DNA from: Clostridia bacterium
GTDB taxonomy: Bacteria; Bacillota; Clostridia; Oscillospirales; Acutalibacteraceae
Assembly (NCBI GenBank): GCA_017936615.1
Contig: JAGBFF010000044.1
Span: forward strand, 8,609 to 72,608
Length of the DNA stretch: 64,000 bases
Direction: 5' to 3'
Numbering within the stretch: position 1 is the first letter of the stretch; every line of letters begins with the position of its first letter. The translations under genes and the position numbers were made by a program. Shown here one piece after another: positions 7,465-44,611 of this stretch. Below the pieces are notes generated by a model. That model was given only the letters and a program-made list of their open reading frames with translations. It ran no database searches and was not told the DNA's origin.

Positions 7465-8613
7465 GTGAAGATTGTTCATATGTGCCTGTCAGGTCCGATG
7501 ACCGATGGGTGGAACTATCAAGAAAACCTTCTTACCAAGTATCATACGCAATTTGGACACGATGTTTCGGTGATCACGTCTCGCTGGGTTTACGATGACA
7601 AAGGAAACTTAGTGTGCAGTGAACGTGATGACTATGATTATGGCGGCGTGCGGATGATCCGGCTGGGCGGAAGGCAATGGGGGCTATCGCAGCTTCAAAC
7701 GCACAAGAACGTGTATCAACGGCTACAGGAGGAAGCGCCCGACATTCTGTTCGTCCACGGCTGTCAGTTCCTGGATATTTACCCGATTGCTCGGTATTGC
7801 AAGAAGCATCCGCAGGTCACGGTGTATGTAGATAACCACGCTGATTTTTCCAACAGTGCCACCAACTGGGTGTCAAAGAACATTCTGCATAAGCTGTTGT
7901 GGCGCCGCTGTGCGAAGAAGATCGCACCGTACACGAAGAAGTTTTACGGTGTTCTTCCGGCCCGTGTGGAGTTCTTAAAAACGATGTACAAGCTTCCTGC
8001 CGACAAGTGTGAGCTGTTGGTGATGGGCGCTGATGACGAGATGGTGGAGGCGGCCGCAAAGCCGGAGGTGCGCTCCCGCATTCGTGCGAAATACGGCATT
8101 GCCGAGGACGATTTTCTCGTGATGACCGGCGGCAAGATCGACGCTTTCAAAACGCAGACCTTGTTGCTGATGGAGGCTGTCAAAAACATAGACGATCCCC
8201 GTGTCAAGCTGATCGTGTTCGGCTCGGTAACGCCGGAACTGAAGGAAAAAGTCGAGGCGCTGGCGGACGGCCGCAAGGTACAGTACATCGGCTGGGTACA
8301 AGCGAAGGATTCTTACGAATACTTTGCCGCCGCCGATCTGGTGGCGTTTCCGGGTCGCCACTCGGTGTTTTGGGAGCAGGTCGCTGCGCAGGGGATTCCG
8401 ATGCTCGTCAAGTATTGGGACGGTACCACGCACGTGGATCTTGGCGGCAACGTAGCGTTTTTGAAGCAGGATACCGTCGAGGAGATCCGGGTGGCGATCG
8501 AGCGGCTGCTTACCGAGCCGCAGCAGTATGTGGAAATGAAACGGATCGCGGTCGAAGAGGGAATGAAGACCTTTTCGTACCGTGATATTGCGAAACGAAG
8601 TATTGAATCATAA
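7465..8613 (+). CDS. glycosyltransferase, GT-B fold (GT1/GT4)
   Basis: GTG start with RBS gagggaaa. C-terminal FPGRHSVFWEQVAAQGIPMLV motif. Confidence 0.75.
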   Translation: MKIVHMCLSGPMTDGWNYQENLLTKYHTQFGHDVSVITSRWVYDDKGNLVCSERDDYDYGGVRMIRLGGRQWGLSQLQTHKNVYQRLQEEAPDILFVHGCQFLDIYPIARYCKKHPQVTVYVDNHADFSNSATNWVSKNILHKLLWRRCAKKIAPYTKKFYGVLPARVEFLKTMYKLPADKCELLVMGADDEMVEAAAKPEVRSRIRAKYGIAEDDFLVMTGGKIDAFKTQTLLLMEAVKNIDDPRVKLIVFGSVTPELKEKVEALADGRKVQYIGWVQAKDSYEYFAAADLVAFPGRHSVFWEQVAAQGIPMLVKYWDGTTHVDLGGNVAFLKQDTVEEIRVAIERLLTEPQQYVEMKRIAVEEGMKTFSYRDIAKRSIES

Positions 8614-32380: not shown

Positions 32381-32457
32381 TGGTCGGAGTGACGGGACTT
32401 GAACCCACGGCCTCTTGGTCCCGAACCAAGCGCTCTACCAAACTGAGCTACACCCCG
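32381..32457 (-). tRNA. tRNA-Pro (anticodon CGG)
   Basis: Reverse complement is CGGGGTGTAGCTCAGTTTGGTAGAGCGCTTGGTTCGGGACCAAGAGGCCGTGGGTTCAAGTCCCGTCACTCCGACCA. It folds as a cloverleaf with anticodon loop TTCGGGA, T-loop GGTTCAAGTCC and an encoded CCA. Confidence 0.9.
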
Positions 32458-42111: not shown

Positions 42112-42810
42112 ATGAGCGTATTGCAGAATAAAGCAACTGCAGAAGCACCTGAAGCTGCAGGCGTAATTTTGCCCTTTGAGAAAAAAGACGAATATTTTAT
42201 TGAGCATTTGTACGAGATTCCGTCCAAACCGGTGTATCGGTTTTTTAAGCGGGTTTTCGACATTCTGCTTTCCGTATTGGCCCTGATCCTTTTAGCGATC
42301 CCGATGCTGGTCATCGCGATCATTATCAAATGCACGTCGCGCGGCACGGTGTTTTACCATCAGGACCGTCTTGGTCTGAACGGTCGCCCCATCCGTGTCA
42401 CCAAGTTCCGTACCATGCACATGGATGCCGAGGTGGACGGTGCGCAGTGGTCGAAGGGCGACGAGGATGGTCGTATCTATCCGTTTGGCCTGTGCCTGCG
42501 CAAGATGCGGTTGGACGAGCTTCCGCAGTTCTGGGGCATCCTGAAGGGTGACTTGAGTCTGGTTGGCCCTCGTCCGGAGCGCGAGTGCTTCTACAAGGAA
42601 TTCGAGACCTACATTCACGGCTTCAAAGAGCGTCTGAAGGTTAAGCCGGGTCTGACGGGCTTGGCGCAGATCAACGGCGGCTACGATCTTCCTCCGGAGG
42701 AGAAGATCCTGTGGGACGTCAAGTATATCAAGAACCGTTCGTTGTGGAACGATTTCAAGATCATGTGCAAGACCGTTGCAGTCGTGTTTACGCACGACGG
42801 CGCGAAATAA
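42112..42810 (+). CDS. phosphoglycosyl transferase (bacterial sugar transferase, EpsL/TuaA/WbaP-C type)
   Basis: One TM helix, then VTKFRTM and DELPQFWGILKGDLSLVGPRP core motifs. Confidence 0.85.
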   Translation: MSVLQNKATAEAPEAAGVILPFEKKDEYFIEHLYEIPSKPVYRFFKRVFDILLSVLALILLAIPMLVIAIIIKCTSRGTVFYHQDRLGLNGRPIRVTKFRTMHMDAEVDGAQWSKGDEDGRIYPFGLCLRKMRLDELPQFWGILKGDLSLVGPRPERECFYKEFETYIHGFKERLKVKPGLTGLAQINGGYDLPPEEKILWDVKYIKNRSLWNDFKIMCKTVAVVFTHDGAK

Positions 42811-42851: not shown

Positions 42852-42885
42852 GTATAAAAAAAGCCGCCCACAGGCGACGGTATAA

Positions 42886-42946
42886 AAAATAGAAGCAGCT
42901 CTTGACCGGATGTTTCTTTACACATCATTTGTCGGTCAAGAGCTGC
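42886..42946 (-). terminator. intrinsic terminator of the orphan unit
   Basis: Minus strand reads GCAGCTCTTGACCG, 24-nt loop, CGGTCAAGAGCTGC, then TTCTATTTTTT. Confidence 0.75.
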
Positions 42947-43240
42947 CTCTGCTCGCTCTTAATATCTAACATCGTTTTGGTCAACCTCTCTTTCTGCAAA
43001 GTGGCCTTCGTTTGCGTTTTCGTCTGTCACTGTCATCGTTTGGTCTGTCTCTCGAAAAGCGAGTGTCTTTGCGACTGTCGACGTTGCACCCTGAAGGCTA
43101 TTATCAACTCGGCAACCTGTAGCAGCGATTCCCTTTCATGTATCGTTATTTGTGTTTTCTTCTAACACTGTGTTGATGCTGCTGTGAATCAGGTATCCGA
43201 GTGGTTTACTTGTTCATGGGACTCACCCTTTCCTCTTTGC
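42886..43240 (-). ncRNA. candidate ~355-nt non-coding (or micro-ORF) RNA, family unknown
   Basis: Bounded by a near-consensus promoter and a strong terminator. There is no ORF longer than 25 codons with a conventional start on this strand, and no downstream gene. Confidence 0.35.
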
Positions 43241-43246
43241 ATCTTT

Positions 43247-43275
43247 ACTATACCACACATTTTTCAAAATTTCAA
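43247..43275 (-). promoter_or_regulatory. promoter of the orphan unit
   Basis: Minus strand: TTGAAA (43275-43270), 17-nt spacer, TGG-TATAGT (43252-43247). Confidence 0.55.
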
Positions 43276-43350: not shown

Positions 43351-43379
43351 TTGACATGTACACGTGGCTCTGTTATACT
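43351..43379 (+). promoter_or_regulatory. promoter-like element pointing into the 3' end of the esterase gene
   Basis: TTGACA (43351-43356), 17-nt spacer, TGT-TATACT (43374-43379). Confidence 0.4.
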
Positions 43380-43388
43380 AAAACTGTT

Positions 43389-43420
43389 GCGGCTGTTCCC
43401 TCGCCAGAGGGAACAGCCGC
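43389..43420 (-). terminator. terminator hairpin of the esterase gene
   Basis: gcggctgttccctc gcca gagggaacagccgc, a perfect 14-bp stem 8 nt after the stop. The U-tract is imperfect. Confidence 0.6.
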
Positions 43421-43427
43421 AAGTTGT

Positions 43428-44477
43428 TTACCGTATTCCGTTTTCCTTTTCGAAGCCATGCAGCGCTTCCCACGCAGGATCGGCATACAGACGGTGTCCG
43501 CCACTGCCTGTGACCAGTGCCAGCTTGCCGCCGAGAGCCGCAAACATCCGCTCTGCGACGGCGTACGCCTTCCGCACACCGTGGTCAGGGAAGATGGTGT
43601 CCTCAACGCCGTTGACGATGACGAGATTCCGCGGTGCGATGAGACCGGCCAGATCGCCCATGTCAAAATCCGGTGCAATACCCGGAATGTAATTGCAGGC
43701 ACAGTGGCGGATGTCCACGATGGAATCCTGATAGGTACAGAACGCACAGGAAGGCATCGCATACCGAATGCGGCGTTCGATACAGGCGGCGTAGAAGGTT
43801 GCCGTGCCGCCGCCGGAATTTCCCATACAGATCAGACCGTCGGTGGAGATATATCCGATATGCTTTTCGATCGCGTCGATCAACCGCATCACGTCCCACA
43901 CACGCTCGCCGATGGGCGTGCGCCCCAACAGCAGTGTCGCCATACTTTGTCCGGCTGAGCAACCGGGTGCACCGTCCTGTATACCGACGGTGCCCATATA
44001 CCGTTGCTCAATGCAGATGGCAGCGTAGCCTTCCTTGACGGCACGCACGGCGAAATCGCGGTCGTTTGCGACGATCTCTTTCATATCCTTCTTGCTTTTC
44101 GGCGTGTGGTCCGGGTTCATGGCGAGAGAGTTGTGCATACCCGTAGAGTGCCCCTGTAAGCAGATACATCCGCGCAGTGTCTCGCCCTGCCAATCCGCAG
44201 GCAACAGGATATAGCCCGGCACAAAATAACCGGGCTCACTCTGAAAGCGGAATGCCTGTACGTGACCACCGGGAACGTCAAATTCCTCGGTGATCTCAAA
44301 AAGCTCCTCCGCGGCAGGGGTGATGCGGGACAGCCCCAACAAATCCCACAGACGGTCGTAGGCCCGTTGTTGCCATGCTGCTGCATCCTCCGCGCCGTCG
44401 TAGCGAAACGCAGGAACGAGTCCGTTAAACAGCGTTGCCTCGTGAAGCAAGGCGATCTTGTTATCTTGCGGGATCAT
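43428..44477 (-). CDS. alpha/beta hydrolase (acetyl-esterase / glucuronoyl-esterase-like)
   Basis: GNSGGG nucleophile elbow, then downstream D and H (GGHRLY). AGGAG lies 9 nt before ATG 44477. Confidence 0.65.
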   Translation of the reverse strand: MIPQDNKIALLHEATLFNGLVPAFRYDGAEDAAAWQQRAYDRLWDLLGLSRITPAAEELFEITEEFDVPGGHVQAFRFQSEPGYFVPGYILLPADWQGETLRGCICLQGHSTGMHNSLAMNPDHTPKSKKDMKEIVANDRDFAVRAVKEGYAAICIEQRYMGTVGIQDGAPGCSAGQSMATLLLGRTPIGERVWDVMRLIDAIEKHIGYISTDGLICMGNSGGGTATFYAACIERRIRYAMPSCAFCTYQDSIVDIRHCACNYIPGIAPDFDMGDLAGLIAPRNLVIVNGVEDTIFPDHGVRKAYAVAERMFAALGGKLALVTGSGGHRLYADPAWEALHGFEKENGIR

Positions 44478-44611
44478 ACGCAACACTCCTTACAGTGATT
44501 TACTTACAGTATATCGGAACACAAGAGCAAAGTACATTGCATTTAAACTTGAAATTCTTTGTATTTCGAAGCAAAAGCACGGTTAAAAAGGTGTTGTTTT
44601 TTCAAAAAACC

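Follow-up and report, generated by a model that had tools for sequence, protein, structure and literature searches.

What does an intergenic unit of about 355 nt do when it appears to run from its own promoter to its own terminator and was described in the initial annotation as holding no real open reading frame (ORF)? The unit lies on the minus strand of the window, by which we mean the whole stretch of 64,000 nt of a Clostridia genome (G000) that was analyzed. Upstream of it is a gene for an alpha/beta hydrolase (43428-44486), which has a strong terminator of its own, and downstream is a convergent gene for a Bac_transf sugar transferase (42112-42810). Starting from the predicted promoter, the unit comprises the following features.

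43270-43275, minus strand: −35 box TTGAAA, seen in the sequence, with the TTG kept in the genus homologues
43247-43255, minus strand: TG-extended −10 box TGgTATAGT (TATAGT at 43252-43247), with a 17-nt spacer to the −35 box
43222-43236, minus strand: 5′ Shine-Dalgarno (SD) module, a purine run ending in GGGTGAG and then the spacer GTCCC (sequence, alignment)
43206-43217, minus strand: three-codon mini-ORF ATG AAC AAG TAA (MNK) (ORF list, alignment)
42996-43205, minus strand: A-rich, poorly conserved spacer with a small hairpin near 43052-43066 in this lineage (composition, alignment)
42984-42995, minus strand: second SD region, AGAAAGAGAGGT (sequence, conservation)
42925-42972, minus strand: conserved micro-ORF, here 15 codons plus TGA, MLDIKSEQRQLLTDK (ORF list, homologues)
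42884-42950, minus strand: long intrinsic terminator, consisting of a hairpin (42950-42891) and a U-run (folding, covariation)
42856-42878, minus strand: second, short intrinsic terminator (fail-safe), seen in the sequence and with a counterpart in genomes G016 and G008

The promoter, proposed in the initial annotation as TTGAAA and TGG-TATAGT, was present at these coordinates, scored 10 of 12 and would place the start of transcription near 43240. It is conserved in other species; an alignment of five species revealed a near-invariant −10 box, and a similar −10 box and leader were found upstream of units in other families. A 14-bp terminator stem had been noted as well, and this stem was real, representing the core of a longer conserved hairpin that is built of 18 bp, an internal loop and then 5 bp. 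The predicted RNA folded with a z-score of −4.6 and beat all 100 shuffles. Across 50 units, 96% of the cells in the hairpin alignment were paired and compensatory changes were observed in 13 of 14 pairs, which was matched by none of 500 shuffles, and slid controls displayed far lower pairing than the true helix. The genus alignment contained three conserved blocks, namely, the extended −10 box with the leader and the 5′ module, the second SD with the next ~30 nt, and the hairpin; the middle between these blocks was poorly alignable.

BLAST detected full-length homologues of the unit in 8 of 38 species within the genus. We also built a covariance model (R1) of the 3′ domain, in which the G000 copy reached 96.2 bits (E = 2.2e-20). 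Of 151 genomes drawn evenly from the order, 18 (~12%) contained a match; they represent about 11 of 30 families, and some have two copies. These prevalence figures derive from samples and incomplete genomes. Scanning one genome per prokaryote species with a pattern made of the second SD and the start of the micro-ORF yielded at least 120 loci, of which at least 102 were units. The units among the matches listed belonged to Acutalibacteraceae, Oscillospiraceae, Faecousia, Fimenecus, Ructibacterium and unclassified Clostridia. As judged from these genome sequences, the distribution is broad but patchy in Oscillospirales. One unit was found, unannotated, in the cultured human gut isolate Vescimonas fastidiosa MM35 (NZ_AP023416.1, ~65.2-65.5 kb; L217:1290-1600), where it carries a two-codon mini-ORF and the ORF MMLDIKSEG and is located between a TetR gene and spoVAC. 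The single match in a plasmid collection lay on an 861-kb Vescimonas replicon filed as a plasmid and showed no sign of mobility, and a phage collection contained no match to the unit. Where two copies occurred, they were 4.5 kb apart in G234 (L176 and L177) or, in G233 (L185 and L186), were divergent paralogues with different peptides, both carrying LDxK, and with GC-richer synonymous codons.

The initial annotation had suggested a scan with Rfam covariance models. The covariance models of Rfam 15 at the gathering threshold matched neither the unit nor any of 20 homologous or paralogous loci, and a search of the unit at E values up to 10 gave just weak hairpin-type matches to microRNA models. 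Our search turned up neither a described family nor a paper or an annotation for the unit. The sole Rfam match in the window was a tRNA gene (32384-32457, minus strand).

The genomic surroundings bear on the question of whether the unit stands alone. Flanking genes differed from species to species within the genus. At the 91 loci with a callable downstream gene, this gene was co-directional in 48 cases and convergent in 43, and 77 downstream proteins fell into 73 different Pfam families, of which the commonest (ABC_tran) occurred only six times and none was enriched. With unrelated neighbors and about half of them convergent, the unit is a stand-alone element rather than a leader or a part of an operon, in agreement with what had been proposed from the single locus.

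The conserved coding element of the unit is the 3′ micro-ORF at 42972-42925. This ORF, behind the second SD, had been missed along with the second terminator, and the statement that the unit holds no real ORF was therefore incorrect. Its ATG is at 42972 and its TGA (42927-42925) lies in the hairpin, and it shares its frame with a 24-aa ORF that is listed with a TTG start. In 50 diverse units, AAAGAGAGGT was invariant or near-invariant. The nine-codon sequence MLDIKSEQK was encoded in 65 of the 102 units among the matches listed, a set chosen partly by the ORF sequence itself, and variation was found mostly in residues 7 to 9. Due to this bias, additional homologues were gathered via the 5′ module alone and via the covariance model. 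In these homologues, found without the use of the ORF sequence, Leu was encoded by TTA, CTA, TTG or CTG, Asp by GAT or GAC, Lys by AAG or AAA and Ile by ATT or ATC, and length changes comprised whole codons only, resulting in peptides of 8 to 10 residues. The start codon was ATG, TTG or GTG. Divergent members read MKLDIKTEEK, MTLDTKKAEK, MMLDTKIELK and MLDNKNHR; the N-terminal offset and the distance from the motif to the stop each varied by one codon. The stop was located in the 5′ arm of the hairpin as TAA, TAG or TGA, and a complementary change in the 3′ arm accompanied it each time. Synonymous codons, whole-codon indels, stops that are kept with stem compensation and the invariant SD block are the marks of a translated frame and are not what would be expected of a base-pairing seed. 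The comparative evidence thus shows selection on translation and on amino acid identity, with LDxK as the core. An alignment of homologues, as suggested in the initial annotation, returned four synonymous Leu codons and whole-codon indels together with compensatory changes in the stem. The proposal of a micropeptide transcript was supported, although for another ORF than expected: MNK is conserved only as a three-codon frame, and 42972-42925 is the element that is conserved as coding sequence.

MLDIK (window 42972-42958; L171:1503-1520) is also the usual N terminus of clostridial seryl-tRNA synthetase, and among the matches listed the same DNA pattern hit 17 serS genes. A mimic of serS was rejected; serS of G000 begins with MVDIK in other codons and has no leader. 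The resemblance probably arose by chance, though it may be a clue.

In G000 itself, the ancestral stop has been lost. At 42945-42943, TAG is changed to CAG in G000 and in the sister species G045, with a compensating change in the 3′ arm. Owing to this mutation, the ORF has 15 codons in G000 and 14 in G045 (6 and 5 extra). Both frames now reach further up the hairpin before they stop, and in G000 the stop is placed in the internal loop instead of the 5′ arm. The G000 copy retains an intact promoter and hairpin as well as both ribosome-binding sites, and similar extensions were seen in a few other lineages (L065, L199). That such extensions are tolerated indicates a tolerant C terminus and a constrained N-terminal part.

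Three readings of the unit can be weighed on these data. A purely noncoding small RNA that acts by base pairing, with the segment before the terminator as its seed and with incidental ORF features, would agree with the small-RNA size, the unit's own promoter and terminator, the intergenic location and the peak of conservation just before the terminator. A seed, however, would not tolerate an exchange of TTA for CTG with the frame kept, and four synonymous Leu codons, codon-sized indels, a stop that is kept in three spellings and the invariant presence of an SD and a start codon render this reading unlikely. As in mccA (PMC4231749), a strong SD precedes a tiny ORF that is immediately followed by a terminator; this layout brings to mind the precursor of a modified peptide, either microcin C-like or another RiPP, whose tailoring enzymes would be encoded elsewhere. 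We judge such a precursor to be very improbable: no conserved neighbor was found at 77 loci, the flanks in G000 are the hydrolase and sugar transferase genes, the peptide ends in Lys and not in the Asn needed by MccB (PMC6495379), and the LDxK peptide is conserved in sequence while MccA sequences are not. Least credible of all is that the unit serves a downstream gene as its leader or attenuator, or that it is what remains of a decayed gene. The overlap of a short ORF with a terminator is attenuator-like, and the mutated ancestral stop in G000 could be taken as a sign of decay; yet convergent genes lie downstream in G000 and at 43 of 91 loci, the gene families are unrelated, a second terminator follows, and the hairpin stayed compensated after the loss of the stop. 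The initial annotation had also listed a badly decayed small gene, and this idea can be dropped: no homologue contains a longer intact ORF, and the unit is conserved across about 11 families.

Further candidates were rejected. A T-box leader or remnant gave no RF00230 match even at E values up to 10, and the T-box-like string in the 5′ module is UGAG or UGAU, not the UGGN of an antiterminator bulge that pairs with the 3′ end of a tRNA, and is placed at the 5′ end, not before the terminator. For a sponge of CsrA or Hfq, neither protein family was found in the 83%-complete genome, and GGA motifs were not obviously enriched. The peptide of 9 to 15 residues is charged, whereas a type I toxin would be hydrophobic and have ~20 aa or more. 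As for a type I antisense RNA, the lone nearby promoter-like site on the opposite strand (43351-43379) is upstream of the unit and points away from it. This plus-strand site is near consensus (TTGACA, 17 nt, TG-TATACT; 11 of 12), is antisense to the hydrolase gene and faces a 16-bp bidirectional hairpin (43387-43422) that terminates this gene.

At the 5′ end of the unit, the SD (43228-43223) and ATG AAC AAG TAA (43217-43206) reported in the initial annotation were present and conserved. The module begins ~12 to 15 nt past the predicted transcription start. In all five genus homologues the start codon and the in-frame TAA of the mini-ORF are kept while the inner codons vary, and in the genus alignment the frame from start to stop survived a one-base deletion just past the stop. 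Among the matches listed, an equivalent module was present in 84 of 102 units, compared to a mean of 6.5 in base-shuffled upstream regions. The length of the mini-ORF in these 84 listed units was three codons in 77 and two in 7, never one, four or five, and TAA served as the stop in 77 of the 84. The module core with the start codon occurs only seven times in the 1.66-Mb G000 assembly, and four of these occurrences are in the unit and its paralogue; in 401 genomes of the order, the core string was several-fold more common than a reversed control. The 3′ end of the 16S rRNA, with which the SD sequences would pair, was not found in the G000 assembly. The predicted accessibility of both ribosome-binding sites was no better than that of the spacer.

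A strong SD with a frame of one to three codons was also observed in the 5′ leaders of ordinary genes (L187, L025 and L027), namely, genes for a secreted protein, a desulfoferrodoxin-like protein (here ATG is directly followed by TAA) and a sigma factor-like protein. With its occurrence upstream of both small RNAs and ordinary genes, the module appears to be a portable element.

The spacer between the two ORFs is distinguished by its composition. In G000 it contains 36% A and 16.5% T, compared to 23.5% A and 24% T in the window. Among the matches listed, the spacers of the family averaged 42% A, compared to 28% in the flanks, and had a median length of 239 nt. The alignment of the spacer fails beyond close relatives. 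No family-wide structure was found in it, and the small hairpin was present in just 18 of the 102 units among the matches listed. Several elements of this region had been pointed out from the single sequence. The triple stop (43106-43098) and the 25-codon ATG frame (43036-42959) do exist in G000 and are lost in homologues, and the recurring GACAG is indeed present in four copies (43024-43079) that form a cluster not kept beyond the closest relative. An 87-aa Cys-rich ORF on the opposite strand (42902-43165, plus strand) was rejected, as its frame is disrupted by single-base indels when G000 and G016 are compared. The ORF results from the abundance of A and the scarcity of T in the sense strand, and base composition makes for long antisense frames in many units.

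Related RNAs that lack the LDxK ORF were found in the same and in other genomes. A paralogous RNA of ~330 nt in G000 (L015:1400-1745; contig C12, ~8120-8460, minus strand) has the same kind of promoter and leader and contains four modules of SD, start and stop, with frames of 2, 3, 10 and 2 codons. A terminator and then a gene for a TauE/SafE-type membrane protein follow at its 3′ side, and the same arrangement exists in G020 (L007) and G048 (L013). Terminator-ended RNAs with three to six mini-ORF modules were also present in other genera (L172 in G162; L190 and L191 in G141 and G240). These multimodule RNAs suggest that ribosome engagement itself may be the function. Those of other genera include a duplicated pair of modules ~174 nt apart. 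In all three species with the TauE/SafE arrangement, a 6S RNA gene (RF00013, 60 to 70 bits) is located ~500 nt from the multimodule RNA on the opposite strand (L015:2203-2397; L007:852-1046; L013:843-1036).

In our best reading, which we hold to be somewhat more probable than not, the unit is a self-contained micro-gene, that is, a tiny mRNA or a dual-function RNA, whose 5′ mini-ORF parks a ribosome and whose product is a free, trans-acting micropeptide. A sigma-70-type promoter would give rise to an RNA of ~355 nt that ends at the long intrinsic terminator, as judged from sequence and conservation, with both ends predicted. Near the 5′ end, the strong SD and its minimal frame (AUG, two sense codons and UAA) probably recruit a ribosome that goes through repeated cycles without moving on. 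Parked in this way, it would shield the RNA from 5′-to-3′ decay by RNase J, which is encoded in G000. With so few codons, the mini-ORF may allow the ribosome to stay in contact with the SD and to translate the frame reiteratively. These 5′ steps are modeled on Firmicute 5′ stabilizers and on the reiterative translation of ORFs of two to eight codons: in Bacillus subtilis hbs, RNase J1 is blocked once a ribosome initiates at a strong SD (PMC5737220), and ORFs of two to eight codons undergo reiterative translation (PMC6495379). The second strong ribosome-binding site would then drive the LDxK micro-ORF, usually of 9 codons and here of 15, and would yield a large output of micropeptide, by analogy with the mccA RNA, which gives MccA and is ribosome bound, very stable and terminator ended (PMC4231749). 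The hairpin would stop transcription and protect the 3′ end, and terminating ribosomes would have to open its base. We infer that the product is a free cytoplasmic peptide acting in trans. What the comparison of sequences shows directly is the conservation of the unit, its isolated position, its coding signature and the covariation of its terminator. Some observations speak against this micro-mRNA model. The spacer of ~240 nt is always kept, and a gene for a peptide only should need none; lineages without the ancestral stop (G000, G045 and L065/L199) tolerate 5 to 6 extra residues; the distribution is patchy; and the ribosome-binding sites are predicted to be no more accessible than the spacer. 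Moreover, nearly all primary translation products of such a short length that we know of are cis-acting leader peptides, which also counts against a trans-acting peptide.

The main rival is a riboregulator with ribosome engagement as its function, in which the tiny ORFs act as translation events and not via their products. Such a regulator would work by trapping ribosomes or tRNAs or by reporting translational capacity, and LDxK would be a nascent chain that holds the ribosome on the terminator stem by pausing or arrest. This is a real possibility, albeit not the one we would expect to hold. It can draw on the paralogous RNAs with the same promoter and leader and three to six modules but no LDxK ORF (G000 contig C12, G020, G048, G162, G141 and G240), on the strictly fixed length of the mini-ORF, on the stop of the micro-ORF always lying within the hairpin and on the spacer always being retained. 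Known nine-codon ORFs, such as those of cat-86 and cmlA, are cis-acting leaders, and short ORFs are translated reiteratively (PMC6495379). On the other hand, the register of the motif varies by one codon on both sides and stop-loss variants persist; neither would be expected of an arrest peptide. No target or output could be identified, and CsrA and Hfq were not found in the 83%-complete G000 genome. We also know of no arrest motif that would correspond to the LDxK ORF sequence. A broader version, which we regard as rather doubtful, posits a class of RNAs built of one to six ribosome-capturing mini-ORF modules in which translation events are the function. These events would be reiterative cycles of two to three codons and, in the present unit, a nine-codon cycle ending in the terminator stem; possible roles are the titration of ribosomes, initiator tRNA or particular tRNAs, the reporting of translational capacity and the release of N-formyl micropeptides.

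Several known systems resemble parts of the unit. The leader peptides of cat-86 and cmlA have nine codons. As in these attenuators, an ORF of about nine codons overlaps a hairpin with its 3′ end, so that the stem has to open for a ribosome translating the ORF; in contrast to them, no regulated gene is placed behind the hairpin of the unit. This hairpin is a terminator, and after it come a second terminator and, in many cases, a convergent gene. SR1/SR1P, RNAIII/hld and SgrS/SgrT have ORFs of 26 to 43 codons and proven base-pairing targets. The unit shares with them a stand-alone transcript of small-RNA size with a small ORF (here predicted to be translated), but its ORF has 8 to 10 codons and a base-pairing role would be hypothetical. 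The closest layout is that of mccA, in which a tiny ORF with a strong SD is directly followed by an intrinsic terminator (PMC4231749, PMC6495379). The mccA RNA is short, abundant, ribosome bound and very stable, and both ORF lengths are in or near the reiterative range. Unlike the unit, mccA heads an operon with mccB-E and shows some read-through, and its seven-residue peptide must end in Asn and is not conserved in sequence. The unit stands alone without an adjacent MccB (ThiF-like) gene, its peptide is conserved (LDxK) and ends in Lys, its stop is inside the stem, and a separate three-codon ORF and the ~240-nt spacer are located upstream. A very strong SD near the RNA 5′ end in an RNase J host is shared with the cryIIIA STAB-SD, hbs and the ermC leader (PMC5737220). 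Unlike in these Firmicute 5′ stabilizers, the SD of the unit always comes with a start codon, two (rarely one) sense codons and a stop, and its stabilizing effect would be by analogy. ORFs of two to three codons behind an SD are also known from phage lambda bar and other minigenes (PMC8708949), which act via peptidyl-tRNA drop-off or local translational control.

If confirmed, the LDxK micro-ORF, with 8 to 10 codons, would be among the shortest protein-coding genes that are conserved in sequence across families of an order. To our knowledge, its length is below the cut-off of every gene caller, and the unit is unannotated even in the RefSeq genome of a cultured human gut bacterium. The analysis also exposed an apparently portable 5′ element, a strong SD with a three-codon ORF, which small RNAs share with ordinary mRNAs in gut Oscillospirales and which would offer a natural test case for ribosome-mediated RNA stabilization and reiterative translation. 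The module-class reading, if true, would describe a kind of riboregulator without a described counterpart.

A hint of expression, and only a hint, came from three small metatranscriptome runs of one animal gut study, whose contigs match 42965-43192 at ~98 to 99% identity. These contigs carry no information on ends, strand or level, and carry-over of DNA is possible. They span neither the flanking genes nor the first 48 nt nor the hairpin, and missing contig coverage proves nothing in this respect. Contigs of the 3′ ORF region of relatives were present in the same runs.
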